This document shows positions 10,430 through 63,624 of a stretch of 64,000 nucleotides of DNA, in pieces (positions within the stretch are counted from its first letter, which is position 1; each line of letters begins with the position of its first letter). The notes under the pieces were generated by a model. That model made no database searches. It saw nothing but the letters and a program-made list of their open reading frames with translations, and had not been told where the DNA came from. A program made the position numbers and the translations under genes. The DNA is from Candidatus Omnitrophota bacterium (GTDB taxonomy: Bacteria; Omnitrophota; Gorgyraeia; Gorgyraeales; Gorgyraeaceae), in assembly GCA_030649895.1 (NCBI GenBank), contig JAUSEX010000031.1, positions 2,620 through 66,619 of the forward strand. The letters are read 5' to 3'.

Positions 10430-10484
10430 TAAATAATAGAAAATGTAGCCTGATCGGGGCGAATATACAAAAAAAGGGGGGAAA

Positions 10485-11342: not shown

Positions 11343-11374
11343 TACTATGTTGCGGCAGGCAATGTTTCATATGT

Positions 11375-11990: not shown

Positions 11991-11992
11991 AA

Positions 11993-29414: not shown

Positions 29415-29416
29415 CT

Positions 29417-41511: not shown

Positions 41512-41543
41512 TATCGCGGAACTTATACGGAAGAGATGAATGT

Positions 41544-41977: not shown

Positions 41978-42760
41978 ATGAACTTAATAGTCAGATTTAA
42001 AAAAATAATAGCTGAAAGACAGATTATCAGGGGCATGGTAATAAAAAATTTAAAGAGCAAATATATCGGCTCTATATCAGGGATCTTGTGGGCTGTTATA
42101 AATCCTTTGTTGATTATGCTGGTGATCACCTTTGTTTTTAGCCAGATAATGAAGACAGATATAAAGCATTTTCCATTATTGGTGTTAAGCGCGCTTTTAC
42201 CTTGGAATTTTTTTAATAATTCTATAAATGAATCCGCAGCTTCGATCAGCAGCAATGTCGATGTGTTAAGGCAATTTGTGATGCTTAAAGAGACTATCCC
42301 TATAGCTACGGTAATAACTAATCTTATAACTTTTTTATTTGGTTTTATAATTGTCCTGCCGGTTTTTATTATGTTTAATACAGGCATTGTAAATTATCTT
42401 ATCTTGCTGCCTTTTGTAGTGGTGCTACATTTTATTTTTACATTAGGGATCTCCATGCTTCTTAGTATAATAAATGTTTATTTTAAAGACTTGCCTCAGT
42501 TATTGAATATTTTTTTAATGTTACTATTTTGGCTTACGCCTGTATTTTATTCCATAGATATGATACCTCAAAAATACCACTGGCTTATTATTGCCAATCC
42601 GAGCGCATGTTATATTATTATTTACAGGGCGCTATTATATCAGGGTTTTAGCGGCGGCATATCTATATGGTTACTTGCGATTGGATTTGCTTTGATCAGC
42701 ATAATAAGCGGGTATTTTTTATTTATGAAAAAAGAATCGGAAATCTTGAAATACGCGTAG
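41978..42760 (+). CDS. wzm: ABC-2 type polysaccharide exporter permease (Wzm/TagG-like)
   Basis: 260 aa, six TM helices, ABC-2 family pattern. Immediately upstream of the ATPase. Confidence 0.8.
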   Translation: MNLIVRFKKIIAERQIIRGMVIKNLKSKYIGSISGILWAVINPLLIMLVITFVFSQIMKTDIKHFPLLVLSALLPWNFFNNSINESAASISSNVDVLRQFVMLKETIPIATVITNLITFLFGFIIVLPVFIMFNTGIVNYLILLPFVVVLHFIFTLGISMLLSIINVYFKDLPQLLNIFLMLLFWLTPVFYSIDMIPQKYHWLIIANPSACYIIIYRALLYQGFSGGISIWLLAIGFALISIISGYFLFMKKESEILKYA

Positions 42761-42783
42761 ATAAAAACGATGGATTGAATATC

Positions 42784-45597
42784 ATGAGCATGATATCTTT
42801 AAAAGATGTTGGTTTAAAATATAAGGTAGAGTTTAAAGAAAACGGCAGGATTACAACCGAGGATTTTTTGGCGCTTAAGGATATAAATATAGAGATAGAA
42901 AAAGGGGAAATCGTAGGGATCATAGGTGAAAATGGGGCTGGGAAAACCACGTTACTTAAAATAATAGCCAGGATGCTGGCGCCTGATAAGGGTACAGTTG
43001 ATGTAAATGGCAAAGTCTCTATGCTTATGGAAATAGGGTCTGGTTTTCACAGGGAGCTTACAGGCAGAGAGAATATATATACTATTTCTTCATTATTTGG
43101 CTTTTCAAAAGCGGAGATAGAGGCGAAATATGGTGATATAGTGAAGTTTGCAGCTATAGGCAGGTTTATAAATGCGCCGGTAAAGATTTATTCTCAAGGC
43201 ATGTATATGCGCCTGGCTTTTGCTATAGCGATACATGTGAACCCCGATATCTTGCTGGTGGATGATATATTTGCGGTCGGAGATGTTTATGCGCAGCGTA
43301 AATGTATCAATAAAATGTTTGAACTTAAAGAGCAGGGCAAGACTATTATTTTTGTTAACCAGGATATAGAAATACTAAAAAGATTCTGCACAAAGGGTAT
43401 ATTCTTAAGGGAAGGCAGCGTTGTTAAGGAAGGACCTATAGATAAAATATGCGATTACTATATGGAATCAGTGGGTGAAAAAAAAGGAATTGCTATTTTG
43501 GAAAAAGGTTTATTAGGCGTAGTTTTTAATAATGGCAGACTTATTCTAAGGTGGAAGAACAACGCTATTACATGTGGTTTTGGCGGATATACTATGGTTT
43601 TAACTTCAGGCCGTCAATATCTGTCAAATACTGCTGACTGGGAAGTCCAAAAGTCTAAGACAGGCGATGAAATCATAGCCATAGGTAAATGGCCTGATAC
43701 CCCGCTTATTCAATGCTGGAAAATAGTTTTCTTAAGTGAGAGAGAATTTTCATGGGAAATAACGATGCAAATGTTTGAAAATATTGCTATAGAGAAATTT
43801 TCTGCAGATATTATATTTATAGAGGGATATAAAAAGTGGTTTACTTTGGACAGTGAAACTAGTTTCCCGGAGGCTTTTGTTCACGATGCAGAATGGGAAT
43901 ACAATCTAGTCAGTGATTCTGCCAATAAGCTAATCGGCTTAAAAGGCAATAATCAAATATCAGGCTTTTTACCCGTGGTAATTTTAGACAGGTCTAATGA
44001 TAATATGGAAATAAAATGTGAAGTTTGTAATACAGGCGCCGATATAGGAGGCAGGGCAGTCCGATATCAGTCTCTTTGTCAGAAGCCGGGATTTGATTAT
44101 ATCCAGGATAAATACAGGTGTTTCCTTAGCACGGTAAGAATATTTGAATCTGAAGAAGGCGAGGGTTTAAAAAATTATATTAGTTGTACAAAACAAATAA
44201 TAAGTGAATCCTACATTATACGCAAAGGCTTAATAAGCCTTTTTTGCAAGGATCATAAGGTTGAAATTTATTATCGAGATAAATTACTTACGAGCGGAAT
44301 AGGTTTAAATGTGAGATTTAAATGCCAAGATAAAAATTACAGCCCTCTTGATGGGCAATGGGTTATGCACAAAAAAAATAATGAAGAAATAGCAATAACT
44401 ATTTCTTGGGGCGGGAAATCGCCACTTATTCAAACATGGAAGCTGAAATTGCAGGATGATAATGTTGTAGCATGGGAAATAGAGATGGAGATTAATGAAA
44501 AGACAGTGATAAGAAATAAGGAAGTAGAGCTGACACTTAATGAAGAATATGAGAAATGGATAACTGAGAATGAAAGAGGAGATTTTAAAAAAGCAGAGAA
44601 ACAAGGCAGCACAGTGCTTTTAAATAAATATATAAATGAACATATCGGCGTAGAGGGCATATCTAAAGTGGATGGGTTAGTTTTGCCTGGTGTAATATTT
44701 AATTATAAAGACGCGGCCCCCAAGGTTTCTTACATTTCTAAAATAAAAGAAGGGATAATGGCTACAAAATTACGGTATACGGAAATAGACTGTAAGGATA
44801 ATTTTTATATTCCATCAGGAAGGTATGAATATTTTAAAGGCGAGATAAAAGTGATAGCTGATCAAGAAAAAAGCCAGGATTTGATAAATAAAAAATCGGC
44901 TATTGGTAAGAAGGAATCATTAAACAGAATAGAACTTGGCAGCGTGTCGTTAGTTTTTGATAACGGAAGAGGCAGGATTTTTTGGAACGGTACAGAATTG
45001 ACAAAAGGATTAGGGCTGTACGCGTCTATTTTTTTTAAAGACGTATGGCATGATTCCTCTCAGGCTTTTTGGGAGGTTAAAAAGTTAGACCAAAAAAGAT
45101 TATCGGCTGTTGGTTATTGGCCTTGGCTGCCACTGATACAGACTTGGAAGATTTGTTTAGAGGATGAAAATACTGTTGTGTGGGATATAAAAAAAGAAAT
45201 TTGGGATGATGTTATTTTAAAAAGAGAACAGGTAAATCTTATGCTTTCGGATAACTATAAGGCATGGTCTGCTCATAAACGAATTCATGGAAAGTTTCCC
45301 AGTACATTTAGCAAGCATAGTGGTATTTTTTGGGATAGACTGTGGTGTGGGGATACTACCTCTCCTATTAGAGTTGAAAAGCAGAGGATTGGAAATAGGA
45401 TTTTAGGTGGGCAGCTTTTACCAGCTGTTGCTCTTGATTGTTCAATAGATTGTCCTGCCCGCTATTTCATTATTGAAAATACGGATGATTTATTTGAAGC
45501 CCGGGTTCTACAGTGTGAATTTGATTCGAATCAGAAATGCGGCGTTAATAAAGATAGAGATAAATATTTTGAAGGGCGAATCAAGGTAAATATTTAA
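42784..45597 (+). CDS. wzt: ABC transporter ATP-binding protein (Wzt/TagH-like) with ~690-aa C-terminal extension made of three novel bipartite modules
   Basis: Start placed at ATG 42784 (MSMISLKDVGL) after the permease stop. Walker A GENGAGKTT, ABC signature YSQGMYMRLAFA, Walker B ILLVDDIFAVGD. The C-terminal repeats start near 43510, 44230 and 44940. Confidence 0.85.
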   Translation: MSMISLKDVGLKYKVEFKENGRITTEDFLALKDINIEIEKGEIVGIIGENGAGKTTLLKIIARMLAPDKGTVDVNGKVSMLMEIGSGFHRELTGRENIYTISSLFGFSKAEIEAKYGDIVKFAAIGRFINAPVKIYSQGMYMRLAFAIAIHVNPDILLVDDIFAVGDVYAQRKCINKMFELKEQGKTIIFVNQDIEILKRFCTKGIFLREGSVVKEGPIDKICDYYMESVGEKKGIAILEKGLLGVVFNNGRLILRWKNNAITCGFGGYTMVLTSGRQYLSNTADWEVQKSKTGDEIIAIGKWPDTPLIQCWKIVFLSEREFSWEITMQMFENIAIEKFSADIIFIEGYKKWFTLDSETSFPEAFVHDAEWEYNLVSDSANKLIGLKGNNQISGFLPVVILDRSNDNMEIKCEVCNTGADIGGRAVRYQSLCQKPGFDYIQDKYRCFLSTVRIFESEEGEGLKNYISCTKQIISESYIIRKGLISLFCKDHKVEIYYRDKLLTSGIGLNVRFKCQDKNYSPLDGQWVMHKKNNEEIAITISWGGKSPLIQTWKLKLQDDNVVAWEIEMEINEKTVIRNKEVELTLNEEYEKWITENERGDFKKAEKQGSTVLLNKYINEHIGVEGISKVDGLVLPGVIFNYKDAAPKVSYISKIKEGIMATKLRYTEIDCKDNFYIPSGRYEYFKGEIKVIADQEKSQDLINKKSAIGKKESLNRIELGSVSLVFDNGRGRIFWNGTELTKGLGLYASIFFKDVWHDSSQAFWEVKKLDQKRLSAVGYWPWLPLIQTWKICLEDENTVVWDIKKEIWDDVILKREQVNLMLSDNYKAWSAHKRIHGKFPSTFSKHSGIFWDRLWCGDTTSPIRVEKQRIGNRILGGQLLPAVALDCSIDCPARYFIIENTDDLFEARVLQCEFDSNQKCGVNKDRDKYFEGRIKVNI

Positions 45598-45621
45598 GAT
45601 TTATTTTATTAGATAGATAAA

Positions 45622-46656
45622 ATGGACATTAGCACGCAAAATATCAATGCAAATTTTAAAAGAAACGGATCAAATTCTATTTTTCCGAATTATTGCTGTT
45701 TTGTAATTACGCTTAAGTGTATAATGAAATGTAAAATGTGTCACATTTGGAGAGATAGTGGAAACATCTTAAACGAACTGACAATTCAAGAATGGAAAGA
45801 TGTTGTAAATTCTCTCAAGGGTTTTTTGGATACGAAATATGATATTATATTATCCGGCGGAGAGCCGCTTTTAAAGAAAGATATACTAGGTCTGGTAAGT
45901 TATATTGCAAAATCAGGGTACAGGGCATCTCTTGAAACAAACTCTTATCTTGTTGATGAAGAACTGGCCAGGGCAATCCAGGATTCAGGGTTGTGGAGAA
46001 TTTGTATTTCATTGGATAGCTTGGCTGAGGATACGCATGATTCATTAAGAGGAAGAAAAGGTTCGTATGGAAGGGTAATGAGAGGGATTGAATATTTAAA
46101 TAAGTTTTGTCCATCGGTCGGTATAAATATACAAACTACTATTATGGAGCAAAATTTAGATGAGCTTGCTAAGCTTGCTGAATGGGTAGCTAGTGATGAA
46201 CGATTAGATTATGTTTATTTCCAGGCAATAGTCCGTCCTTTTGGCACGCCTATGGATGAAAATTGGTTTAAAGGCGATCATTATGGGTTTTTATGGCCTA
46301 GCCATACAGATAAAGTAAATCTGGCTATAGAAGAGCTGATAAGAATTAAAGAAAATAATCCTAAAATTGCCAATACAGTTGCTCAGTTTAAGGCGTATAA
46401 GGCATATTTTAAAGACCCGGTTAACTTCGGTAATAACATAAAATGCACGATAGGTAACCGCGATATTAATATAAATCCATGCGGCGATGCATACCTTTGT
46501 TTTTCAAAAGATTCCATAGGCAATATAAAAAATAGAAGCATAGAAGAAATATGGTATTCAGAAAAGGCTGACAAGGTAAGAAATGAGATCATTGGCTGTA
46601 AAAAACATTGCCATTTTTTACTCAATTGTTCTTTTGAAAAGGGAGACTATTTTTAG
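45622..46656 (+). CDS. radical SAM protein with C-terminal Cys-rich (SPASM/twitch-like) domain, paralog 1 of 8
   Basis: 344 aa. YCCFVITLKCIMKCKMCHIW (CxxxCxxC), SGGEPLL glycine motif, C-terminal C-x12-C-x5-C...C-x3-C-x5-C (IGCKKHCHFLLNC). Confidence 0.8.
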   Translation: MDISTQNINANFKRNGSNSIFPNYCCFVITLKCIMKCKMCHIWRDSGNILNELTIQEWKDVVNSLKGFLDTKYDIILSGGEPLLKKDILGLVSYIAKSGYRASLETNSYLVDEELARAIQDSGLWRICISLDSLAEDTHDSLRGRKGSYGRVMRGIEYLNKFCPSVGINIQTTIMEQNLDELAKLAEWVASDERLDYVYFQAIVRPFGTPMDENWFKGDHYGFLWPSHTDKVNLAIEELIRIKENNPKIANTVAQFKAYKAYFKDPVNFGNNIKCTIGNRDININPCGDAYLCFSKDSIGNIKNRSIEEIWYSEKADKVRNEIIGCKKHCHFLLNCSFEKGDYF

Positions 46657-46679
46657 TAGATTTTTATCTAAAAATTATT

Positions 46680-47696
46680 ATGCAAGATAAGCCATTTAAT
46701 TTTTTAAAATCTCAAAGCAGCCTTTTAGATATACGAAAACCGGCATTTTGCTGTATAGGTATTTCTACAGGGTGCATTTTGAAATGCAAGATGTGTTCAG
46801 TGTGGAAAACCAAATATGTTGCTATGCCACAAGAACCTACTATGGATGAATGGTTTCGTTTTATCGAGCTTGCTGCCGGCTTAACGGAAAATTCTATCGA
46901 GATAAACGTTTCCGGAGGAGAGCCTTTATTAGATGAAAGAAATTTAGCGTTAGTTAAATTTAGCGCCAAAAAAGGACTTTCAACTTCTATGCCTACCAAC
47001 GGTTTTCTCATAGACAAAGAGATGGCTTATAAAATAGCAGATAGCGGACTAAGCGCGATAGGCATATCTTTGGATGGTATCAAAAAAGATACGCATGATT
47101 TTTTAAGAGGCGTAGAGGGATGCCATGACAAAGCAATGCAGGCGATTGACTATCTTGATAGATGCTGCGGAAATATAGGAATAGGAATTTTGACAACTAT
47201 ATCAGAGAAGAATATCGATGAAATTATTGAGCTAACCAGGTGGGCTAATGAAGACAATAGAATCGAAACTATTATTTTTCAGGCGGTAACTCAGCCATTT
47301 AATACTCCTTTTGACGATGAATGGCATGATAAAAGCGAATATAGTTTTCTCTGGCCGAAAGACATCAGAAAGACCCATGTCTTATTAGACGAGATAATAA
47401 AACTAAAAAAAATGGCGTATAAGATATCCAACACAGTTTCTCAATTGGAAACTTTTAAGAAGTATTTTGAAAACCCCTTGGGATTTATTAAAAAAGATGC
47501 GTGTAATGTGGATTTTTATATGAATATAAATCAATTTGGAGATGTATATATGTGTCCAAGAAAAAAAGCTGTAGGGAATATAAGAAAATGCACTCCAAAA
47601 GATATGTGGTATTCAGAAGGCGCAAATCAAATGAGAGAAGAAATAAAAAGCTGCAGAGTAAATTGTCATCATGTATTAAATTGTTGTTATGAATGA
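46680..47696 (+). CDS. radical SAM/SPASM-like protein, paralog 2
   Basis: 338 aa. FCCIGISTGCILKCKMCSVW, SGGEPLL, KSCRVNCHHVLNCCYE. Confidence 0.8.
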   Translation: MQDKPFNFLKSQSSLLDIRKPAFCCIGISTGCILKCKMCSVWKTKYVAMPQEPTMDEWFRFIELAAGLTENSIEINVSGGEPLLDERNLALVKFSAKKGLSTSMPTNGFLIDKEMAYKIADSGLSAIGISLDGIKKDTHDFLRGVEGCHDKAMQAIDYLDRCCGNIGIGILTTISEKNIDEIIELTRWANEDNRIETIIFQAVTQPFNTPFDDEWHDKSEYSFLWPKDIRKTHVLLDEIIKLKKMAYKISNTVSQLETFKKYFENPLGFIKKDACNVDFYMNINQFGDVYMCPRKKAVGNIRKCTPKDMWYSEGANQMREEIKSCRVNCHHVLNCCYE

Positions 47697-50600
47697 GGAT
47701 GGTGGTTATCGTATGAACAGCTGGACAGCAAAATTTAAGAATAAAATATATGCGTTCGAAAAGATATTCAAGCAAAAAAGGACAAGCTTTCGCACGATAT
47801 ATAATGGTACCTTAAGGCTCTTTCTGGATGAAAATAATAGGCTTAGGATATATTATAAAGACAATGAGCTTACAAAAGTCTCCGGTTTGAATACTAACAT
47901 ATTATCCGAAGCTAATTGGCATAGTTCGCTTGACTCTATAGTTAATAATATAGAAAAACTATCTTCTGAAGAGATGATTATCCATTTGAAGCATAGTCAG
48001 CTTCCTCTTGTGCAAGCTTGGCATCTGAAATGCAACTCAGAAGATACGCTTAGCTGGGAAGTAAATATGCATATAAAAAAACCGTTACGTATAGATTGTA
48101 TGAAAGCATCCTTGTTCTTATCCAAAGCTTATGAGGATTGGATAATTCCTGCCAAACAAGATACATTTCCTCCTTTTTCTGATTTTCAATGGAAAAGTAT
48201 GAATTCTTTTGAAGATAAAGCCGGCTTCATAGGCCTTGCTTCTTCCTTAGAAGAATTTCCTGGCATGTCTCTTAAAAGTTCTGATAACTCAAAAGCTTCA
48301 TTAATAATCCAAAATACCGATATAAATCTTTCTTCCCGTGTTCTTGAAATTCAATGCGAAGATAAAAAAGAATTCTACCAGCCCGGCACCTACTCTTTTC
48401 TTAAGGCCACAATACAGTTTTATCCTGATAAGAATGTTTTAAAAAATATTCTCAAAGAAATAAAGGAGCAGGAACAAAAGAAGCAGGACGAGCTAATGCT
48501 TCAAGAAGAAGAGCGCCTCAAAAAAGCCAAAGAGGAAGACCATAAGCTCCGCACCCTTCAAAGCGGCCCCTTTAGGCTCCATATAGACCAGCATAACAGG
48601 TTTCACCTCTATTATAAAGAACAAGAGCTTACCAAAGGAGTTGGTATTAATATGGGAATACTCTCTGAAGGTAATTGGTATGCTGCCTGTGATTCCAGAA
48701 TTGAAATAAAAAGGCCGTCTTCTAATAAGATGCTTGTACAGTTTATTTACAATAAGCTTCCTGTTATTTGCTCATGGCAGATAGATTTTAAGCCGGAAGG
48801 CGTGTTTACCTGGGTCATTGATATATCTTTTAAAGAATCTCTACGCATAGATCGAAGCAATGTTTCTTTATTCTTATCCAAATCTTACGATAATTGGATT
48901 GCTCCTCCTGAAGAAGGGAGTTTCAGCTCTTCATTCGGCCCAGGGTGGCAAAGGATGAATACTCACAAAGACAATGCTGAATTTACCGGATTATATTCTT
49001 CTTCAGAAGAATTTCCGGATGTGATTTGTAAAAGCTCAAAGGATTCAAAAGCTTCATTAATAATCCAAAATACCGATATAAATCTTTCTTCCCGTGTTCT
49101 TGAAATTCAATGCGAAGATAAAAAAGAATTCTACCAGCCCGGCACCTACCCTTTTCTTAAGGCCACAATACAGTTTTATCCTGATAAGAATGTTTTAAAA
49201 AATATTCTCAAAGAAATAAAGGAGCAGGAACGAAAGAAGCAGGAACAGGAACAAAAACGGCTTCAAGAATTAGAAAGGCTTAGACAGGAAGAAGAAAGGC
49301 TTAAGCAGGAACAGGAACAGAAGAAACAGGAAGAAAATCACAAACAGAATGAATTTAAAAAAATATACATGTTATTAAAAGAAGACGAAAAAGATTTTCC
49401 ATTAATCGAGGATAATGATGTGTATGTATATGGAGACTGCGAAGACTTGCATGACAAAATTGCTTCTCAACAAGGAAATTTTAATAATCTCATTTCAAGA
49501 ATAGAGACAGCCAAAAAAAAAGGTTTAAAGGTTAATATAAAAATAGGCGTATCGAAATTTAATTTTTTTAAGCTAGACACTATTATTCAATTTTATTCTA
49601 GATTGCTAAATAGCCGCATAGACCTGCGTTCTGTTTCTTTGAATTTTTTACCCGCAAAGAATATTTTTTATTATTTCGCCGAGTATATAAAACAATTAAA
49701 TATGCAGCTCGAATCGAGTAATATAGGGCTTTTCTTAAGAGACAAAGAGTTGCCCGGCCTTCTTTGGGCTATTTCTAGCCAAGCAGATCAATATAATGAG
49801 AAAGATTTATTGCGATTATTGGGAGTTATAACGGAGCACGCCTTTATTGGACCTCAAACTATCGTTCTAGATATTAATCATAGCTGTAATACTAATTGTA
49901 TACATTGTTGGATCCATACGCCAAAGCGTAAGGCCTCTCTACAGCTTAGTAATTTAAAGATGGACATCTCTTTATATAAAAATATTATTGATGATGCGGC
50001 AAATCTTTTATGTGACGAGATTATCATACAGGGAGATGGCGAGCCTCTTCTAGACGATAGATTTTTAGAAATGACCTGTTATGCGCGGGATAAGGGATTA
50101 AAAGTTTTATTTTTTACGAATGGCATACTTTTGGATAAAGAAAAAGCCGGTAGAATAATAGACTTGGAAGTAAACGAGATATTCTGCAGCCTTCCTGCAG
50201 GAACAGATAAGACTTATGCCTTGGTTAATCCGGGGCATTCAAAGGATACCTTTCATCATATAGCAGCGAATTTAAAAAATTTAAGCTTGATGAGAAAAAA
50301 ATCAGGAAAAAACAAACCATTATTACAAATGTCCCATGTTATCCATAACCTGAATTATCATGAGTTAGAAGAAATGGCTGAATTGGACGCTTATATAGGA
50401 GCGGATAAAACAAGATTTTATCTTGCCCGCTTAGATGAGAATATAGATTTTTTAAAATTAAGCCCTAGACATATTAAGATAATAAAAGAATCCCTAAAAA
50501 AGACAGCGCCCTATTTAAAAAGCAAGCACGTAGAATTACAAGACAATATATATTTTCAGCTAGAAAACTATAACTCTACAACAGGTTATTGGTCTAAAAA

Positions 50601-50910: not shown

Positions 50911-50922
50911 AGGATTTTAGCT

Positions 50923-53115: not shown

Positions 53116-53119
53116 TGAT

Positions 53120-54379: not shown

Positions 54380-54537
54380 TTTACAAAAGTTTGTTAAACA
54401 TTGCAAGGCAGGCGGGTTATTTTATGCTATTAGTAGAGGCGTTAAATATGTAACTTGGCGCAATAAATGTAAAAAAATGGGTATAGACTGTGGAAAATTC
54501 AGCAGAGAAAGATAGCTGTATTAAAAAAAGGTGATTT

Positions 54538-55587
54538 TTGGAATATCTTAAAGAGTTGCTCGGGACTAAAAAATGTTTCGATAGAAAGATATTGGAATTT
54601 TCCTGTTTTGGCATAACTGATGATTGTATCTTAAAATGCAAGATGTGCCATAAATGGAAAGAGGATATATTTATTAAAAAAAAGGCAAAGATCCCCTCTT
54701 TGAAAGATTGGAAGAATTGCGTTAGTTCTATTAGGGGCATCACTGATGATTCTTTTCAGATAAACTTTGGCGGAGGAGAGCCATTTTTAAATAAAGATAT
54801 CTTGGAATTAGTCAGGTTCTGTAAATCAAAAAACTTTAAGACAAATATAGCTACTAATGGATATCTTATAGATCAAGAGATGGCTAAAAAGATAGCGGAT
54901 TCCGGATTGGACAGCGTTATCTTATCATTAGATAGTCTGGATGAAAATACGCATGATTATTTGAGAGGCGTAAAGGGTGTTTTTAGCAGAGTCATGGATG
55001 GCATGGCGCATCTCGATAAATATTGTAACGGTATTTATAAGGGCATATGCTGCGCGATATATGAAAAGAACTTAGATGGCATATTGAATCTTATGGAGTG
55101 GGTAGATAATGATTCCAGAATAAATTCCATTTATTTCATGGCTTGCATGCAGCCGAATAATACTCTGGTAGATCCGGGGTGGCATAAAAAAGATGAATTT
55201 AATTTTCTTTGGCCGAAAGATTCAAAAAAGATCTCTGGTGTAATAGACAAGCTTATAGAGCATAAAAAAAATAATTCCAAAATAACCAATCAAATTTGTC
55301 AATTAGAAGCATTTAAGTTATACTACCGGTGTCCGGAGAAATTTGTCAAGAATACAAAATGCAATATGGATAGAGCTGTTCATATCAGTTCTTGCGGCGA
55401 TATATTTCTTTGCTATAGATGGCCTTTATTAGGCAATATTCAGACAGATGATCTAGCCGAGGTCCTGGGCTCAGAAAAAGCCGGGCGTATAAAGCAAGAT
55501 ATAGCCGGCTGTAAAGATAACTGCCATTTTTTGCTTAATTGTTTTTTTAAAGATGAATATCCTTTTGAATCAGAAACCAAAAAATAA
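54538..55587 (+). CDS. radical SAM/SPASM-like protein, paralog 3
   Basis: 349 aa. FSCFGITDDCILKCKMCHKW, GGGEPFL, AGCKDNCHFLLNCFF. Confidence 0.8.
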   Translation: MEYLKELLGTKKCFDRKILEFSCFGITDDCILKCKMCHKWKEDIFIKKKAKIPSLKDWKNCVSSIRGITDDSFQINFGGGEPFLNKDILELVRFCKSKNFKTNIATNGYLIDQEMAKKIADSGLDSVILSLDSLDENTHDYLRGVKGVFSRVMDGMAHLDKYCNGIYKGICCAIYEKNLDGILNLMEWVDNDSRINSIYFMACMQPNNTLVDPGWHKKDEFNFLWPKDSKKISGVIDKLIEHKKNNSKITNQICQLEAFKLYYRCPEKFVKNTKCNMDRAVHISSCGDIFLCYRWPLLGNIQTDDLAEVLGSEKAGRIKQDIAGCKDNCHFLLNCFFKDEYPFESETKK

Positions 55588-55610
55588 ATTATATACGAAA
55601 GGAATTTTAA

Positions 55611-56669
55611 ATGAAAAGCAATGTTAAGAATAGCCTTACAAGGCAAGATGTGCCTGCGGTATTAAAACCAGGTTTTTGCTGTATAGGTATCGTTGATACG
55701 TGTATGTTAAAATGCCAGATGTGCCACAAATGGCAGGATGATCCTGGCACCATTGGTTTTTCTCAGCCTACTACTGACGAGTGGAAAATGTTTATCAGGC
55801 AGTTAAGAGACTTGGTGGATGAAGGGTTTGAGATTGATTTTGGAGGCGGGGAAGCTTTGATGAGAAATGATGTTTTGGATCTGGTATCTTATGCCAAGAG
55901 TTTAGGGTTTAGAAACGCCATAGCTTCAAATGGCTACCTTATTAATGAAGACATGGCAAAAAGGATAGTGGATTCCGGGTTAGACAGCATAGTTTTATCA
56001 TTAGACAGCTTAAAACCCGAGGTCCATGATCGAATGCGCGGTGTAAAAGGCGTTACAGAAAGGGTATTTAAGGCTATTGAATTCTTAAGAAAATATTCAA
56101 AAGATATACACATAGGGATATGCACGATAATAATGGAACAGAGCCTTGGCGGCATTATAGACTTGGCTGAATGGGTAAATACTAATAGGGACAAGATGAA
56201 CTCGATTCTTTTTATGGCTCCCATGCAGCAAAATAATACGCCTTTTGATCCTGGATGGTTCAAGAAAACAGAATATAATTTTATATGGCCAAAAGACAAT
56301 AAAAAAACCCAGAATGTCCTTGATGAGTTAATAAGACGCAGAAAATTGGGACATTGGATAGGCGATTCAGTGGTGCAATTAGAGGCTTTTAAAGCATATT
56401 TTGAAAACCCTGCCAGGTTTGTGAAAAAAAGCCCTTGCAATCTGGACAGGGCTATACATGCGAGTTCCATTGGTGATGTATTCTTTTGTTATCGTTACGG
56501 CCTTTTAGGCAATATAAAAAATGGGGATGATATAAGGGAAATATGGCATTCAGGATCAGCCGACAGGGTCAGGACTGATATTAAAAAATGCCAGCATAAT
56601 TGCCACTTTTTGCTTAACTGTTTTTTTGAAGGCGATTATCCCTTTACGGTAGGAGGAGAGGGGGGTTGA
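55611..56669 (+). CDS. radical SAM/SPASM-like protein, paralog 4
   Basis: 352 aa. FCCIGIVDTCMLKCQMCHKW, GGGEALM, KKCQHNCHFLLNCFF. Confidence 0.8.
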   Translation: MKSNVKNSLTRQDVPAVLKPGFCCIGIVDTCMLKCQMCHKWQDDPGTIGFSQPTTDEWKMFIRQLRDLVDEGFEIDFGGGEALMRNDVLDLVSYAKSLGFRNAIASNGYLINEDMAKRIVDSGLDSIVLSLDSLKPEVHDRMRGVKGVTERVFKAIEFLRKYSKDIHIGICTIIMEQSLGGIIDLAEWVNTNRDKMNSILFMAPMQQNNTPFDPGWFKKTEYNFIWPKDNKKTQNVLDELIRRRKLGHWIGDSVVQLEAFKAYFENPARFVKKSPCNLDRAIHASSIGDVFFCYRYGLLGNIKNGDDIREIWHSGSADRVRTDIKKCQHNCHFLLNCFFEGDYPFTVGGEGG

Positions 56670-56670
56670 A

Positions 56671-57717
56671 ATGCCTGATTCTTGCGAAGTAAGATCGGAG
56701 AAAGAAACTTTAAATGAAAAAAATGTTCTAAAACCCAGTTTTTGCTGTGTAGCTGCTACGGATTATTGTATGTTACGCTGCAAGATGTGCAATAAGTGGC
56801 ATGAACCTGCCCCAAAGAAAGAGGAGTTGCCTTCTTTGGATGAGTGGAAAAATTTTATAGCCGGTTTTAGAGAATTGGTAGACGAAGGTTTTGAAATGGA
56901 TTTTGGGGGAGGCGAGGCGTTATCGATGCCAGGCATATTGGATTTAGTAAAATTTGCAAAACTAAAAGGGTTTAGGACAACTATGGCTTCAAATGGGTAT
57001 CTTATTGATATGGATATGGCTAAGAGAATCGCAGATGCAGGATTAGATGCCGTAAGCTTGTCTTTAGATAGCTATAACCCTGAGGTTCACGATAAAATGA
57101 GGGGAGTTAAAGGCGTTCATCAGCAGGTAATGAATGCTATAGATAATTTGACAAAATATTCTCCGCAAACAAGAAAAGGCCTTTGCTGTATTATCATGAA
57201 CGAAAATTTGGATGAAATCCTCAATCTTGTTGATTGGGCAAATGGCAATAAAAAAGTAGACTGGATATATTTTATGGTAGTAGTCCAGCCTAATTATAGC
57301 GGGCCGTTGACAGATAACTGGGTGGATGAGTATCAATATCTCTGGCCTAAAGATAAATCAAAGGTGCTTGCTGTTCTAGACGAGCTTATAATGCGAAAGA
57401 AAAATGGCTCCAAGGTAAGCAATAGGGTAGAGCATCTCAGGGCATACAAGGCGTATTTTAACAATCCGCAGAAATTAGTAAATAAGGCCAGATGCATTGT
57501 TGGCGGCAAGGCAATAAGCGTTAATGCTTATGGCTTTGTCCAACTCTGTCTTTTTAAGGATTTTATAGGAAATATAAGGCAGAATGATATCAGGGAATTA
57601 TGGCGTTCTCAGGATGCAAATTTAATAAGAAAAAAAGTAGATGAGTGCAAGACAAATTGTCATTTGCTTCTTAATTGTTGTTATATAGAAGATGAACCGT
57701 CTCTCTATTCGGATTAA
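56671..57717 (+). CDS. radical SAM/SPASM-like protein, paralog 5
   Basis: 348 aa. FCCVAATDYCMLRCKMCNKW, GGGEALS, DECKTNCHLLLNCCY. Separated from paralog 4 by 1 nt. Confidence 0.8.
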   Translation: MPDSCEVRSEKETLNEKNVLKPSFCCVAATDYCMLRCKMCNKWHEPAPKKEELPSLDEWKNFIAGFRELVDEGFEMDFGGGEALSMPGILDLVKFAKLKGFRTTMASNGYLIDMDMAKRIADAGLDAVSLSLDSYNPEVHDKMRGVKGVHQQVMNAIDNLTKYSPQTRKGLCCIIMNENLDEILNLVDWANGNKKVDWIYFMVVVQPNYSGPLTDNWVDEYQYLWPKDKSKVLAVLDELIMRKKNGSKVSNRVEHLRAYKAYFNNPQKLVNKARCIVGGKAISVNAYGFVQLCLFKDFIGNIRQNDIRELWRSQDANLIRKKVDECKTNCHLLLNCCYIEDEPSLYSD

Positions 57718-57731
57718 ATATCCTTGACCAG

Positions 57732-58739
57732 ATGAACCAGGACTTTCTCGTTCGCAAGCCTAAATACTGCTGCTGGGTTCTTAATTATCGCTGTATGTTA
57801 AGATGCAAGATGTGCTACATCTGGAATATCAAAGACGATAAAAGCCAGGAAACTACCATGGAGGAGAAAAAGAAATTTGTCAAATCCTTGCGCGGCATGG
57901 TAGGCCCTGATTTTGAATTTCACTTATCAGGCGGGGAGCCTTTAATGACAGAGGGGGTTTTGGATTTAGTTAGTTTTATTGCTGATGAAGGATATAAGAC
58001 AAATATGGTTACAAATGGCTTTCTTATCGATGAAAAAATGGCAGAAGATGTTATGAATTCTAAACTGGGGAGCGTTACTATTTCATTAGATGGAATAAAT
58101 CCAGATACCCATGATTATATCCGAGGCGTAAATGGCAGCTATTCCAGGATAATGGAAGCTATCGAATATCTGGATAGGTCTAGAAAAGATAAAAGCCCGA
58201 AAATCTCCATGTTGACTGTTATAATGGAACGCAATTTAGATGAGCTGCTTGAGCTTGCAGAATGGGTTCAACAGGATAAGAGGTTAGAGATGATAAGCTT
58301 TCAGGCAATAAACCAGCCTTTTTGCGAAGATATGGATAAAGAATGGTTCAGAGAAAATAAAAATAGTTTTCTATGGCCTCAGGATAAAGCAAAAACCAGC
58401 TTTATTATGGAGAGGCTTAGAGAATTAAGGTTAAAAGGGAATAAAATAGGGAATCACCATAATCATTTTTTGCATTTCAGGGAATATTTTAAGGATCCGA
58501 ACACATTTTTAAAGAAGATAAAATGCAATCTTGGAGATTATGAGTTTCATGTTGATCCGTACGGGAAGATGTTTTTCTGCTCTTTTACAGATTCGATGGG
58601 AAATATAAAAAAAGATGATATAAATAAAATCTGGTATTCGCCGGAAACAAAAAAAATAAGGCAGGATGTGTATAATTGCCGCAGAAACTGCCATATAATG
58701 ATTAATTGTTTTTATGAAGATGAAGCCTGCATTACGTAA
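57732..58739 (+). CDS. radical SAM/SPASM-like protein, paralog 6
   Basis: 335 aa. YCCWVLNYRCMLRCKMCYIW, SGGEPLM, YNCRRNCHIMINCFY. Confidence 0.8.
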   Translation: MNQDFLVRKPKYCCWVLNYRCMLRCKMCYIWNIKDDKSQETTMEEKKKFVKSLRGMVGPDFEFHLSGGEPLMTEGVLDLVSFIADEGYKTNMVTNGFLIDEKMAEDVMNSKLGSVTISLDGINPDTHDYIRGVNGSYSRIMEAIEYLDRSRKDKSPKISMLTVIMERNLDELLELAEWVQQDKRLEMISFQAINQPFCEDMDKEWFRENKNSFLWPQDKAKTSFIMERLRELRLKGNKIGNHHNHFLHFREYFKDPNTFLKKIKCNLGDYEFHVDPYGKMFFCSFTDSMGNIKKDDINKIWYSPETKKIRQDVYNCRRNCHIMINCFYEDEACIT

Positions 58740-59982
58740 AACATTTTTTATAACAGTGCCAGCCGTATTGATTTTTCTCATCGTGCTGGAGTTATGCTTG
58801 AGGATGTGCGGGTATTTATATATACAGCGTCACAATCATGAAGCGCATACCAAAACAACGGAATTAAGTAAGGATAAACTCAGGATTCTTTGCTTGGGAG
58901 ATTCTTTTACTTTTGGCGTGGGGTCTAGTCCTGAAAACAATTATCCAAAGCAGTTAGAAAGAATATTGCAGGAAAATATCTCTGAGAAAATAAGCGTTAT
59001 TAATGGGGGCCGCCTTGCCAATACTTCATCGTTACTCTTAAAAAATTTACAAGAAAATATTAATAAATATTCTCCGTCTATCATAGTTGTAATGATAGGA
59101 ATGAATAATAGTTGGAACTTAGAAGGCAGCAGTTATTTTTTGTTAAATAGCAGCATAGGTTTACTGGAAAGACTGGAAAGAATGTCAAGCTCTTTCCGTA
59201 TATACAAATTATTAAAGATAGGATGGGTTAATTTTAAATATAAAATAGATGGAAATAAGAAAATAGCTTCTGCTAATAATTCGATTCGGAAAATAAAACC
59301 TGAATCATTAGAGTTATCCGCTATTGGCAATGAATTATTCTTAAAAGGGGAGTATATCCTGGCTATAGAGAAGTTGCAGGAGTCATTAAAAATAGATAAC
59401 AACAACTACGATGCGTATTTATTTTTAGCAGGTATGCGAAATACTCAGAAAGAATTTCAATTAGCTGAAAAAGAGATATGGCAAGCTATTAATTCGATAG
59501 ATGAATGGGACGATCATCTTATCTGCACAGTGCTTCTAGCCATCAATAGGCTTGGCGATAAGAAAGAAGCAGAATTAGTAAAACTGAAATCGTATTTTAA
59601 AAGTAAATATTATGGGAATAAAAAGAGCAGGCTACTTAAGATAATAGAGGCAGATTTAGATTTTTCAAAAAAAGAAACCATATCTAAAGTGCTGGAATAT
59701 GATTTGGAACGGATAGTTAGGTTGGCTAGGGAGAACAGAGTAACGCTTATTTTGCAGACTTATCCAAGGAGCATACTTGAGAATATTACTATAGAAACAA
59801 TAAGCCGAAAATATAATAGTTGCTTAGCAAACAACGAAATAATATTTAAAGAAAAGGCTCGAAGCGATTTTTTTGTTGCCGATGGCCATTGTAATGAGAA
59901 AGGATATGAATTAATTGCGGAAAATGTGTATGATATTTTGGTTAAAGAAGAAATGTTACCTAGAAAAAGAACAGGAGAATAG
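58714..59982 (+). CDS. membrane-anchored SGNH/GDSL-family hydrolase with TPR-like C-terminal region
   Basis: 422 aa. N-terminal TM, then GDSFTFGVG (GDS-x block I) and later SGNH blocks. Overlaps paralog 6 by 26 nt. Confidence 0.6.
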   Translation: MKMKPALRKTFFITVPAVLIFLIVLELCLRMCGYLYIQRHNHEAHTKTTELSKDKLRILCLGDSFTFGVGSSPENNYPKQLERILQENISEKISVINGGRLANTSSLLLKNLQENINKYSPSIIVVMIGMNNSWNLEGSSYFLLNSSIGLLERLERMSSSFRIYKLLKIGWVNFKYKIDGNKKIASANNSIRKIKPESLELSAIGNELFLKGEYILAIEKLQESLKIDNNNYDAYLFLAGMRNTQKEFQLAEKEIWQAINSIDEWDDHLICTVLLAINRLGDKKEAELVKLKSYFKSKYYGNKKSRLLKIIEADLDFSKKETISKVLEYDLERIVRLARENRVTLILQTYPRSILENITIETISRKYNSCLANNEIIFKEKARSDFFVADGHCNEKGYELIAENVYDILVKEEMLPRKRTGE

Positions 59983-59986
59983 AATA

Positions 59987-61045
59987 ATGGCAGATAAAAT
60001 AAAAGAGAATTTAAGCAAGACAATTGTTTTACCCGCATTTTGCCTTTTGGTTGTTTCTAAAATATGCAATTTTAGATGTAAGATGTGCAATATGTGGAAG
60101 AATAAAGAACGCGGTATAGACAGGAAAGAACTTACCATGGAAGAGATGAAAGGTTTTGTAGATGATTTGAAGAATGTTACTACAGAGCCTATCTTTATTC
60201 ATCTTATAGGAGGAGAGGCATTATTAAGAAAGGATTTAACGGAGATCGTATCTTATATAAAGAAAAGCGGCTTTAATAGCTCTATTACTACGAATGGATA
60301 TTATATTGATGATGAGATGGCGAAAAAGTTAGTTGAATCAGGGCTTAAAGGAATATTTCTTTCTCTGGACGGTTTTGAGGAAGATACCCATGATTATCTG
60401 CGAGGCGTTAAAGGCAGCTATAGGCGCGTGATGGATGCTATTGAATTATTGGATAAAAATAGGGGAGACGATAAGTTGAATAGGTTAAGTATCGGCATAA
60501 CTATGACGCTTATGGAGAAGAATTTGGACGAGGTGTTGGATTTGGCTGAATGGGCAAATAACAATGAAAAGATAAACGATTTATTTATTAATGCATGTTT
60601 GCAGCCATTTGACGCCGATGATCATGAAAGAGAATGGTTTAAAAATAGAAAGAATAGCGATGTCTGGCCGCAGGATATAGAAAAAGTTTGCGCTATCTTA
60701 GAAAAGTTGGCTTTGTTAAAGGAAAAGGGTTATAAGATTTGCAATCCTCCGAAACAACTGAGGCTGGTCAAGGAGTATTTTAAAAACCCCTATAGATTTA
60801 TACATGACAGTAAAATAAAATGCCCAAGGGGAGACTTGGCTCCGGAAATAAACGCTTATGGAGATATAAATATGTGTTTTTGTATGCCGCCTGTTGCAAA
60901 CATAAGAGAGAAGAAGTTTTCAGAGGTATGGTATTCCAGGGAAATGGAGGACGTAAGAAATGAAATAAATAAATGTAAGAAAGATTGCGATATAGCTGTA
61001 AATTGCTTCTATAAAATTGAAAATATAACCGATTATGTTAAATAA
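59987..61045 (+). CDS. radical SAM/SPASM-like protein, paralog 7
   Basis: Start moved to ATG 59987 (MADKIKENL) with an AGGAG RBS 9 nt upstream. The track start 59915 overlaps the SGNH gene. AFCLLVVSKICNFRCKMCNMW, IGGEALL, NKCKKDCDIAVNCFY. Confidence 0.8.
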   Translation: MADKIKENLSKTIVLPAFCLLVVSKICNFRCKMCNMWKNKERGIDRKELTMEEMKGFVDDLKNVTTEPIFIHLIGGEALLRKDLTEIVSYIKKSGFNSSITTNGYYIDDEMAKKLVESGLKGIFLSLDGFEEDTHDYLRGVKGSYRRVMDAIELLDKNRGDDKLNRLSIGITMTLMEKNLDEVLDLAEWANNNEKINDLFINACLQPFDADDHEREWFKNRKNSDVWPQDIEKVCAILEKLALLKEKGYKICNPPKQLRLVKEYFKNPYRFIHDSKIKCPRGDLAPEINAYGDINMCFCMPPVANIREKKFSEVWYSREMEDVRNEINKCKKDCDIAVNCFYKIENITDYVK

Positions 61046-62012
61046 GAGCCCAAAAACCTGTCTTCTGACTGTAACAAATAATTGTGTTTTGCGCTGCAAA
61101 ATGTGCCATCTATGGCAGCTTAATACCGCAGAAAATGAAGTTAATATAGATGACTGCAAAAGATTAATAGATTCTTTTAAGGGGTTTGGGCCAGAACCTG
61201 TAGAGGTGCATATTATTGGAGGAGAATCCTTGATTAAAAAAGGAGTATTAGACTTGATCTCGCATATAAGCAACAAAGGATCTAGGACTGTTATGACTTC
61301 ATGCGCATATACTATAGATGAAACAATGGCAAAGGCAATTGCCGGATCTGGTTTAAATATGTTAAATATATCCATAGATAGCTTAAACCCATTAGTTCAT
61401 AATTTTTTAAGAGGGCGAGATGATTCTTTTCAGCGCGCAATGAGCGCAATTGATTATCTGAGTAAGTATAAAGATAATAGACTGAGATTAGGTATCAACA
61501 CTGTTATTTCAGCAAAGAATTTAGATGATATAGTTGGATTAAGCGAGTGGACACTAGGTAATAAAAATCTGGATTCTATTTATTTTATGGCAGTAATGAG
61601 GCCTTTTGGCTCTAACCTGGACTGGCATTGGTTTAAAAAAGAGGAATATAAGGATCTCTGGCCTTTGGATTATTCTAAAGTTGAACTAGTATTAGATAAA
61701 CTCATTACTTTAAAAAACAAAGGCTCTAAGATAGGGAATCCTGCAAGTCAATTAGAGGTCTTTAAGACATATTTTAAAAATCCTTTCGATTTTATAAAAG
61801 TCAATAGGTGCAATGTTTCTGAGCAAGCCCTTAATATAAACGCATTAGGCGATGTTTATCTTTGTTTTTTTATGGAAAAATTGGGCAATATCAAAGAACA
61901 TAATGTGGCGCAGCTTTGGAATTCCGATAAGGCGCAAAAGATCCGCGCCCAGATGCGCTCCTGCAGGAATAATTGCGAATTAGTAGTGAATTGTTATTAT
62001 GAGGAAAAATAA
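61035..62012 (+). CDS. radical SAM/SPASM-like protein, paralog 8
   Basis: 325 aa. KTCLLTVTNNCVLRCKMCHLW, IGGESLI, RSCRNNCELVVNCYY. 11-nt overlap with paralog 7. Confidence 0.8.
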   Translation: MLNKSPKTCLLTVTNNCVLRCKMCHLWQLNTAENEVNIDDCKRLIDSFKGFGPEPVEVHIIGGESLIKKGVLDLISHISNKGSRTVMTSCAYTIDETMAKAIAGSGLNMLNISIDSLNPLVHNFLRGRDDSFQRAMSAIDYLSKYKDNRLRLGINTVISAKNLDDIVGLSEWTLGNKNLDSIYFMAVMRPFGSNLDWHWFKKEEYKDLWPLDYSKVELVLDKLITLKNKGSKIGNPASQLEVFKTYFKNPFDFIKVNRCNVSEQALNINALGDVYLCFFMEKLGNIKEHNVAQLWNSDKAQKIRAQMRSCRNNCELVVNCYYEEK

Positions 62013-63624
62013 TCGTAGAGATACTAATTTTATAGAGTCTAAAATGAGAAGAAGGAATTATTTATTTTTAATATTAATAATATTAAGTTTTCATGTCTTC
62101 CTAAACTATCAAGTATTGAAGAAAAGTAATATTATAAGAATGGATGATGAAGGAGGGACTATAATAGCAGGCTTGAATTGTTACAATATAATATTCTTGG
62201 ATCATAGCATTAAGCTTGTTAATAAATTAGGTTTTATTTTAGGCCTGCATGGTCAATGCCATCCTCGTTTTGTTGAACTCGCAGAAGCGCTTTCTTGGAA
62301 GGCGCTTAATTTATTTAAAATTTTAGACATAACTTCAATGATTTTAGTAGTTAATGCTATATTTTTTATTATTTTATTAGGCAGTGTATATGGAATTGGT
62401 TCAATAGTTTATAATAGAAATGTAGGCATATTATCTGCAGCGCTGGTTTCAATGTTTCCTTTGGTATTTGGACATTCAAGATTAGCTATGCGAGATTTTC
62501 CTTTGATGTGCATGGTTTCTCTGGGTTTTTATCTGCTTCTGAAGGCCGGTAAATTTAGTTCTAGTTTGTATAGCGTATTATCTGGCGTAGTGTTTGGTTT
62601 AGCGCAATTGACCAAAGAAACTGCTTTTATTTTTTTTCTTACCCCATTAATTTATTATTTTACTGGATCTTACTCGTTGGACAATAAAAAGAAGGTGTTG
62701 CGAAATTTTATTGTTACTTTGGCTTGTTTTTTAATTTTAACCGGAGTTGTATATTTCAGATTAGAAAATCTGCACGCGTTTAAAATATATTTTGGGAAAA
62801 CTTGTTATATCAGGAATTATCCCAATTTTTTTTATTATTTAAAAAATTTTATAGAAATTACAGGGCCATTTATTTTGATTATATCGTTGCCTTTGTTTGT
62901 TCAATACTTGGTTAACATTAAAAGAAGAGAGAAAATTCTATTTGTTTGGTTTATTATCCCGATTATATTGTTTAGCATTACCCCAAATAAAGCTATCAGA
63001 TTTCTTTTCCCCATATTGCCGGCTTTTGCCCTAATCGTAAGCAGCGAAATAGCCAATATTAATTTATCTAAAGAATTTAAAAAGGTATTTTATATTATGC
63101 TGATTTCAATCTCAATACTTCAATATGCGTTTTTCAATGCTGGAATTTTAGATACAAAATTTAAAAACCCGTATTTTGAAGCAGGCATCTTGTCTGTTAG
63201 AAAAGATAAATATTTGCCTGAATATATGAGATTATTGGATGTTTTTAAAAAAGAAGCAAAAAATAATAATGTCTCGGGAAATAAGAATGTAGTTTTTTTA
63301 TTCAATATTCGGGAGATCTATTGGCCGTTTTGGCTGGATACTTGGGTATATAAAATGCCTTTCAATGTATCTAATTCACTGCTGGTAGATGAGGTAGATG
63401 TGATTAATACCTACCATGTTGATTGGGATAAAGAAATTTTGAAAGCGGATTATATTGTTAATAAAACAGGCTTTAAAGAACGGCAAGATTATCGGAATCA
63501 TATTTTAGATGGGTTGGAAAAAGGTTTTATTAAATATAAAGATAGATTTGAATTAATCGCTGACATTAAGCTATTGTTTGATAACTCTGCGGTATACGTG
63601 TATAAAAAAGTTAGTCACAATTGA
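62002..63624 (+). CDS. GT-C membrane glycosyltransferase (GT39/ArnT/PMT_2-like)
   Basis: 541 aa, ~12 TM helices. MFPLVFGHSRLAMRDFPLMCMVSLGFYLL loop region resembles ArnT/PMT-family mannosyltransferases. Confidence 0.6.
   Translation, partial: RKNNRRDTNFIESKMRRRNYLFLILIILSFHVFLNYQVLKKSNIIRMDDEGGTIIAGLNCYNIIFLDHSIKLVNKLGFILGLHGQCHPRFVELAEALSWKALNLFKILDITSMILVVNAIFFIILLGSVYGIGSIVYNRNVGILSAALVSMFPLVFGHSRLAMRDFPLMCMVSLGFYLLLKAGKFSSSLYSVLSGVVFGLAQLTKETAFIFFLTPLIYYFTGSYSLDNKKKVLRNFIVTLACFLILTGVVYFRLENLHAFKIYFGKTCYIRNYPNFFYYLKNFIEITGPFILIISLPLFVQYLVNIKRREKILFVWFIIPIILFSITPNKAIRFLFPILPAFALIVSSEIANINLSKEFKKVFYIMLISISILQYAFFNAGILDTKFKNPYFEAGILSVRKDKYLPEYMRLLDVFKKEAKNNNVSGNKNVVFLFNIREIYWPFWLDTWVYKMPFNVSNSLLVDEVDVINTYHVDWDKEILKADYIVNKTGFKERQDYRNHILDGLEKGFIKYKDRFELIADIKLLFDNSAVYVYKKVSHN

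Follow-up and report, generated by a model that had tools for sequence, protein, structure and literature searches.

A stretch of DNA of 64,000 nt from a Candidatus Omnitrophota bacterium (assembly GCA_030649895.1, contig JAUSEX010000031.1; hereafter the window) carries an operon-like cluster of + strand genes, from 36159 to 63624 and continuing beyond the window end, in which the parts of a glycan assembly pathway and a Wzm/Wzt ATP-binding cassette (ABC) exporter are combined with eleven radical S-adenosylmethionine (rSAM) enzymes. We think it fairly probable that the cluster serves a lipid-linked glycan that the rSAM enzymes tailor heavily and the ABC transporter exports. Three observations carry this reading: a sugar-binding-type module that the ATPase of the exporter has in common with a pair of rSAM enzymes, a gene order that is kept in other Omnitrophota genomes, and a natural fusion of Wzt with two rSAM enzymes in a relative. 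The pathway type is known, and the rSAM suite and the shared modules would be a new addition to ABC-dependent glycan export. To our knowledge, no other ABC-dependent glycan pathway has an rSAM suite of this size, and we know of no other case in which exporter and tailoring enzymes share binding modules.

Each open reading frame (ORF) of at least 100 amino acids (aa) between position 19,900 and the window end was annotated with Pfam and NCBIfam, and the predicted proteins were compared all against all. The genome (G000; 1.68 Mb in 59 contigs, GC content 41%, 97.7% complete) was searched for homologs.

A module shared by the exporter and two rSAM enzymes

The module spans ~230 aa and is present in three copies in the C-terminus of Wzt (residues ~270-505, 510-740 and 743-976, numbered from the annotated start), in two copies in a 1073-aa rSAM protein (the giant; residues ~20-500) and in a single copy in a 730-aa B12-binding rSAM enzyme (residues ~487-730). 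Motifs such as ELTKG.G and LPxxQxW...WEI are common to the units, and protein alignments bore out the proposal, made in a preliminary description of this DNA, that a substrate-binding-like module is common to the exporter ATPase and two rSAM enzymes. Searches of the module regions of the three proteins against Pfam at a relaxed E-value of 10 returned no family, only a weak match to Candida_ALS_N, and a profile of the module alignment had no match among PDB sequences; the module is therefore unannotated by sequence and was placed by fold search only. Based on an alignment of nine units, AlphaFold2 predicted an all-β domain for the third Wzt unit (pLDDT 82, pTM 0.84). Foldseek and VIA-align placed this domain among the galactose-mutarotase-like β-supersandwiches (rmsd 2.5-3.4 and Z 16-19 across ~200 residues), with aldose 1-epimerases, GalM, the N-terminal sandwiches of GH97/GH36/GH27-like glycosidases and GalNAc-ase domains as its neighbours; VIA Z-scores against aldose 1-epimerase and GalNAc-ase domains were 16.9-18.9. 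Because this fold binds sugars, a carbohydrate-binding domain is the simplest reading of the predicted module, and Wzt would thus carry a C-terminal glycan-recognition extension of three supersandwich modules. Wzt proteins with this extension are common (2251 database homologs, mostly from Omnitrophota); the family of module-bearing B12-rSAM enzymes is small (~53 database proteins, also mostly from Omnitrophota).

In the giant, the two N-terminal modules (~47746-49188) are joined by a charged linker to a C-terminal rSAM-SPASM part (~49879-50910). A 299-nt direct repeat (48190-48488 and 48946-49244, 87% identity) spans the C-terminal halves of both modules and the charged linker, which points to recent gene conversion between the two modules. 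Contigs assembled from the source run and from a second groundwater run cover the locus continuously except for a split at this repeat, where the source-run contigs break. Contig joins at the repeat were rejected as findings, being paralog/repeat artefacts.

Conservation and a natural fusion

A search of related genomes, which the preliminary description had proposed as a check, recovered the Wzt-module and rSAM array in other Omnitrophota with 38-70% identity per gene. The conserved core runs from WecA through the mutase-like flavoprotein, Wzm and Wzt to the rSAM genes, and the downstream order is two or three rSAM-SPASM genes, the module-bearing giant, the module-bearing B12-rSAM gene and the 419-aa enzyme. 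In two Omnitrophota metagenome-assembled genomes (MAGs; GCA_028716705.1 and GCA_028710245.1, loci L019 and L020), the order is almost identical, and identities are 38% for WecA, 47% for the flavoprotein, 43% for Wzm and 52% for Wzt. Three rSAM-SPASM genes follow Wzt, two of which are one-to-one orthologs of those at 45622 and 46680, and are followed by a 1114-aa full-length ortholog of the giant that includes both modules (53%), the module-bearing B12-rSAM (64%) and the 419-type rSAM (70%). Compared with the cluster described here, the operon in these MAGs thus has an extra rSAM-SPASM paralog, and it comes with upstream B12-rSAM genes and a sulfatase gene.

Full-length orthologs of the B12-rSAM enzyme, with 42-64% identity, were found at five loci (L010, L019, L011, L013 and L014), and orthologs of Wzm (43-63%) at L019, L014 and L017, the last being a Deltaproteobacterium contig with a partial set of flavoprotein, Wzm, Wzt and module-bearing B12-rSAM. 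Four genomes of the same family or genus (G014, G008, G024 and G022) encode module-bearing B12-rSAMs, standalone module proteins, paralogs, and fusions of two or three rSAM units; relatives in G014, G008 and G024 also retain the core order. The genomes of cluster relatives in our collection are small (1.1-2.2 Mb).

The strongest sign that Wzt, the B12-rSAM and the 419-type rSAM work together is found in a genome of another family within the same class (G039). There, at locus L014 (G039:C27:30000-49999), genes for GT4, WecA, the UDP-galactopyranose mutase (UGM)-like flavoprotein and Wzm are followed by a single 1900-aa ORF (7073-12772) that joins the Wzt nucleotide-binding domain (NBD) and two modules to a B12-rSAM with its module and to a 419-type rSAM-SPASM enzyme. 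A protein database entry from an Omnitrophica MAG (P0121) is the same fusion.

The rSAM suite

The suite comprises eight related rSAM-SPASM proteins of ~340 aa, the 419-aa and 1073-aa rSAM-SPASM proteins and the B12-binding rSAM (Table 1), and profile searches found the Radical_SAM, SPASM and B12-binding domains as the preliminary description had claimed. The eight paralogs share 35-52% pairwise identity (Radical_SAM E-values of 1e-19 to 4e-26) and, rather than standing in tandem as had been described, are interleaved with the giant, the B12-rSAM, the 419-aa enzyme and an esterase. Since the CxxxCxxC motif and the SPASM cysteines are intact throughout, none of the eleven looks like a pseudogene, an objection that had been raised in advance. 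Paralogs 1 and 2 have orthologs in L019 (52%, with a tree bootstrap of 100, and 59%, respectively), and paralog 3 groups with an ortholog from G014. With orthologs present across genera, the suite is old and kept, and a recent expansion of the eight paralogs was rejected.

The closest solved relative of the B12-rSAM is AprD4 (PDB 6fd2, E-value 1.7e-26), a radical-SAM enzyme that dehydrates a sugar diol in apramycin biosynthesis, with TsrM and TokK next; all three are sugar- or small-molecule-modifying B12/rSAM enzymes. Among solved structures, the SPASM paralogs show weak likeness to SkfB, MoaA and BlsE, the last a cytosylglucuronate decarboxylase. In NCBIfam they match generic SPASM models, in every case far under the cut-off. 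The enzyme roles proposed here are drawn from general background on these families and are leads only.

Twelve rSAM enzymes had been counted previously. Eleven stand in the cluster, whereas the twelfth, a B12-rSAM gene at 19904, 22 kb upstream, probably lies outside it. Its status as a cluster paralog was set aside, given ~30% identity, its GT9 and tetratricopeptide repeat (TPR) neighbours, and the presence of at least 15 B12-rSAM homologs in the genome. That gene (19904-21337) has a GT9 heptosyltransferase gene (21664-22866) and a TPR protein gene (22890-24857) beside it, in what is probably a lipopolysaccharide (LPS) core or other glycan locus. A second rSAM-rich cluster of glycan type was observed on another contig (G000:C47, L002, 1-20000). 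It encodes four rSAMs and three B12-rSAMs along with a PMT_2 GT-C protein of 614 aa, a GT9 heptosyltransferase and a 764-aa protein in which a phosphodiesterase/sulfatase is joined to a methyltransferase.

Glycan assembly and export genes

All the glycan assembly parts that had been named alongside the exporter and the large rSAM suite were found at or near the positions given for them (Table 1).

Table 1. Genes and modules of the cluster, with positions in the window.
Feature	Position	Strand	Basis
GT4 glycosyltransferase (cytoplasmic chain extension)	36159..37325	+	PF00534/PF13439
WecA-like polyprenyl-phosphate N-acetylhexosamine (HexNAc)-1-phosphate transferase (initiator)	37322..38314	+	PF00953
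FAD flavoprotein, UGM-like	38330..39655	+	closest solved relatives are UGMs
NodU/CmcH-type O-carbamoyltransferase	39664..41511	+	PF02543+PF16861
SxtJ-family small membrane protein, TTG start	41508..41963	+	PF19588 6.5e-9
Wzm ABC-2 permease	41978..42760	+	ABC2_membrane 2.6e-13
Wzt ABC ATPase, NBD then three modules	42784..45597 (annotated start 42667)	+	ABC_tran 8.2e-21
Wzt modules M1, M2, M3	~43474-44181, ~44194-44886, ~44893-45594	+	module alignment
rSAM-SPASM paralog 1	45622..46656	+	Radical_SAM 2.6e-25, SPASM
rSAM-SPASM paralog 2	46680..47696	+	Radical_SAM 1e-19, SPASM
1073-aa rSAM-SPASM giant	47689..50910	+	Radical_SAM residues 731-899, SPASM 978-1051
730-aa B12-binding rSAM with C-terminal module (~52381-53112)	50923..53115	+	B12-binding + Radical_SAM
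419-aa rSAM-SPASM, closest to the rSAM part of the giant	53120..54379	+	Radical_SAM 6.9e-19, SPASM
rSAM-SPASM paralog 3, TTG start, exact start uncertain	54538..55587	+	Radical_SAM 1.3e-20
rSAM-SPASM paralog 4	55611..56669	+	Radical_SAM 2.1e-21
rSAM-SPASM paralog 5	56671..57717	+	Radical_SAM 2.1e-24
rSAM-SPASM paralog 6	57732..58739	+	Radical_SAM 1.4e-23
SGNH/GDSL esterase or acyltransferase, N-terminal membrane anchor + TPR	58714..59982	+	Lipase_GDSL_2 2.5e-12
rSAM-SPASM paralog 7, TTG start	59915..61045	+	Radical_SAM 3.5e-26
rSAM-SPASM paralog 8	61035..62012	+	Radical_SAM 1.7e-20, SPASM 4.7e-11
PMT_2 / GT-C polytopic glycosyltransferase	61999..63624	+	PMT_2 5.8e-11, Glyco_transf_22

The first gene encodes a GT4 glycosyltransferase (Pfam Glycos_transf_1, 9e-32, and Glyco_transf_4; sub-cut-off NCBIfam matches to TIGR04157 glyco_rSAM_CFB and other models) with an ortholog-like GT4 in L014. 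It is the glycosyltransferase of the kind that polymerizes chains in the cytoplasm, and no dedicated polymerase family was identified. Initiation on polyprenyl phosphate is represented by a polytopic transferase of the WecA/WbpL type (PF00953, 8.6e-32; NCBIfam TIGR02380 ECA_wecA, 1e-17; ~11 hydrophobic segments), kept in both L014 and L019. The preliminary label of the flavoprotein as UGM-like held up, its best PDB relatives being UGMs (E-value 8.5e-43). Its Pfam matches are to Amino_oxidase/NAD_binding_8, with no match to the GLF family, and its NCBIfam matches are to PRK07208 and, weakly, to the UGM model TIGR00031. The enzyme probably makes UDP-galactofuranose (UDP-Galf), and a Galf-containing glycan is likely since its closest solved relatives are UGMs. 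It is followed by a NodU-type carbamoyltransferase (Carbam_trans_N 2.4e-100, Carbam_trans_C 2.4e-69; NCBIfam NodU) paired with the SxtJ-family protein, which has three hydrophobic segments.

The Wzm permease and the Wzt NBD belong to the same operon-like set. Wzm matched the NCBIfam models for galactan Wzm/RfbD and KpsM, and Wzt matched those for TagH and galactan Wzt as well as the NodI models, the galactan- and TagH-type matches all falling below the equivalog cut-offs. The annotated Wzt start at 42667 would produce a 94-nt overlap with Wzm, and a start at Met40 (42784), 39 codons later, leaves a 23-nt gap; the latter is probably the true start because an identical database protein is 937 aa long. 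Toward the end of the window, as had been noted, an SGNH esterase and a membrane glycosyltransferase are interleaved with the rSAM genes, the latter, first called GT39-like, being of the PMT_2/GT-C type (~11 hydrophobic segments). The esterase has a hydrophobic segment at residues 5-38 and homologs in L001 and L012, and its action on the glycan is probably extracytoplasmic. The GT-C enzyme probably takes sugars from a lipid-linked donor and adds them across the membrane from the cytoplasm.

Neighbouring genes either overlap by 4-94 nt or are separated by 1-24 nt, with a single larger gap of 158 nt. The overlapping and abutting gene boundaries that had been read as one long operon were recovered, and the translational coupling that had been read from them would follow from that spacing only. 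Scans of the cluster for promoters and terminators gave counts equal to the shuffled background and speak neither for nor against one long transcript. The window edge is not the limit of the cluster. The contig continues (L001, G000:C17:66000-73335) with two further GDSL esterases, one of them with TPR, a GT9, an rSAM-SPASM protein that forms a long branch in the tree, and a large TPR protein. Elsewhere in the window, dnaG primase adjoins rpoD sigma-70 (27654-31027), and genes for a MiaB-family rSAM (24880-26100) and CvpA (26117-26659) were observed.

Proposed pathway and alternative explanations

In the pathway that we favour, the WecA-like enzyme would transfer HexNAc-1-phosphate onto undecaprenyl-phosphate, and the chain would be extended by the GT4 and probably other glycosyltransferases, probably with Galf supplied by the UGM-like flavoprotein. 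NodU would O-carbamoylate the glycan, and the rSAM suite would modify its sugars in the cytoplasm, with the B12-rSAM likely performing C-methylation or, as its relation to AprD4 suggests, dehydration/deoxygenation, and the SPASM enzymes carrying out epimerization, oxidation or chemistry of the deoxygenation type. Glycan binding is the most likely role of the modules, which may contact the terminal residues in the manner of the Wzt carbohydrate-binding domain on capped O-antigen; the exporter and at least two tailoring enzymes would in this way meet on one chain. By analogy with such capping, the module-bearing B12-rSAM and giant could be capping enzymes. The finished glycan would be exported by Wzm/Wzt and, on the far side of the membrane, would probably be decorated further by the PMT-type GT-C enzyme and the anchored SGNH esterase/acyltransferase. 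The genome encodes LpxC and a Wzy_C (WaaL-like) ligase, and the organism therefore makes LPS. For the same reason the product may be an LPS O-antigen, which WaaL, encoded elsewhere in the genome, may join to lipid A-core; a capsule or S-layer glycan is also possible.

Several points weigh against this pathway. The rSAM enzymes could act on nucleotide sugars before polymerization and not on the polymer, and we know of no precedent for an rSAM enzyme that acts on a lipid-linked polysaccharide. It could also be proteins, and not the glycan, to which the modules bind, as a shared fold shows no function, and the mutase assignment of the flavoprotein is based on similarity of sequence only. The spacing of the genes suggests co-transcription, and the sequencing runs that carry the locus are groundwater metagenome DNA, with no RNA run listed. 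A published description of a combined radical-SAM and Wzm/Wzt glycan system was not found in literature searches, an Omnitrophota genome paper contains nothing specific on radical-SAM enzymes or ABC transporters, and the objection of an already known pathway found no support in these searches. The earlier argument that enzymes and exporter meet on the same polymer is strengthened by the conserved gene order and the 1900-aa fusion, whereas the polymer as the rSAM substrate is not, a nucleotide sugar or a small glycolipid being possible instead.

A more specific form of the pathway, which we put forward tentatively and hold to be possible rather than probable, is that the rSAM enzymes modify the finished lipid-linked polysaccharide itself, recruited through the shared modules to both the chain and Wzt, so that modification is coupled to export. 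In such a modification-export machine, C-methylation, dehydration/deoxygenation, oxidation or epimerization would decorate, and perhaps cap, the polymer just before export, and the complex would exist in covalent form as the 1900-aa fusion of Wzt, B12-rSAM and rSAM.

It is rather unlikely, in our view, that the product is instead a short glycoconjugate (a lipo-oligosaccharide or glycosylated secondary metabolite), tailored by the rSAM enzymes in the way of aminoglycoside or nucleoside antibiotics (compare AprD4 and BlsE), carbamoylated by NodU and exported by the ABC-2 system as Nod factors are by NodIJ. Small-molecule enzymes are indeed the closest solved relatives of both the B12-rSAM (AprD4) and the SPASM paralogs (SkfB and BlsE), and a NodU-type O-carbamoyltransferase beside an ABC-2 exporter that matches NodI models is common to this cluster and the rhizobial Nod-factor system. 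However, polyprenyl initiation by WecA together with a galactan-type Wzm/Wzt that bears multiple sugar-binding modules is a classic polymer setup, and the mutase-like enzyme points to Galf, which is typical of polymers. Unlike in the Nod-factor system, the pathway is WecA-initiated with Wzm/Wzt-type modules, and chitin or acyl machinery of the NodC/NodA type is lacking, as is NodB, with NodC and NodA absent from the Pfam results for the cluster.

We give a low probability to the explanation that the rSAM enzymes act only on soluble nucleotide sugars, with the modules as docking domains that build a cytoplasmic metabolon on Wzt and do not touch the glycan. A protein scaffold would account for the G039 fusion as well as glycan binding does, and nearly all sugar-modifying rSAM enzymes known to us act on nucleotide sugars or small molecules. 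The sugar-binding fold of the module argues otherwise, as does the fact that comparable C-terminal extensions of Wzt are substrate-recognition domains, such as the O9a-type carbohydrate-binding domain. Lastly, a cluster for the maturation of a peptide made on the ribosome and modified after translation (RiPP) is very improbable and was rejected. Sactipeptide and ranthipeptide clusters likewise have several SPASM rSAM enzymes beside an ABC transporter, and NCBIfam peptide maturase matches (StsB, WgkB, AlbA, SkfB) were obtained, all well below cut-offs, but no small ORF with a leader-core structure was found between 41500 and 64000, the exporter is of the polysaccharide ABC-2 Wzm/Wzt type and not a peptidase-containing ABC transporter (PCAT), the modules have a carbohydrate-binding fold, and WecA, glycosyltransferases and a UGM-like enzyme are part of the cluster.

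If the favoured pathway of a lipid-linked, exported and rSAM-tailored glycan is true, radical-SAM chemistry would extend beyond its main known targets (small molecules, nucleotide sugars and peptides) to the tailoring of a cell-surface polysaccharide or glycolipid. It would also represent a new organization of ABC-dependent glycan export, in which one family of sugar-binding modules is found in both the exporter and the tailoring enzymes, sometimes within one protein. This raises the question of whether, in ABC-dependent pathways, the same glycan feature is recognized by the tailoring enzymes and by the recognition domain of the transporter. Since the pathway is retained across Omnitrophota, an uncultured and widespread phylum, unusual surface glycans would be a trait of the lineage, and phages or hosts might use them as a marker or target. 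Furthermore, the shared modules and the natural fusion offer a handle for enzymological reconstitution.

Comparison with known systems

With respect to chemistry, the rSAM enzymes are of the same class as the diol dehydratase AprD4, the decarboxylase BlsE, DesII and GenK/TokK-type B12-rSAM methyltransferases, BlsE being matched weakly by a SPASM paralog. Those enzymes belong to antibiotic pathways, where they act on nucleotide sugars or small molecules, and we know of none with a carbohydrate-binding module or within a Wzm/Wzt operon.

With respect to assembly, the cluster shares with the pathways for Klebsiella D-galactan I and mycobacterial galactan a WecA-type initiator, a UGM-like flavoprotein and a galactan-type Wzm/Wzt, in the same order. 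The mutase of a Galf galactan pathway is represented by the putative UGM, which, unlike the enzymes of those pathways, is nearer in the PDB to eukaryotic-type UGMs than to the bacterial Glf family. No GT2 galactofuranosyltransferase of the GlfT type appeared in the Pfam results for the cluster, only the GT4 and GT-C enzymes, and the rSAM suite, the carbamoyltransferase and the modules have no counterpart in those pathways.

With the E. coli O9a WbdD/Wzm-Wzt system and Klebsiella O-antigen, the common features are initiation on undecaprenyl-phosphate, cytoplasmic glycosyltransferases, export by Wzm/Wzt and a predicted glycan-recognizing extension of Wzt. As in capping of the O9a type, the end of the chain could be modified enzymatically ahead of export in the cluster described here. 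The extension of Wzt is one small binding domain in those systems, whereas here it consists of three ~230-aa supersandwich modules. The candidate capping or tailoring enzymes here are rSAM proteins that carry the same module as Wzt, eight further rSAM-SPASM paralogs accompany them, and in one relative Wzt and two of the rSAM enzymes are fused in a single protein.

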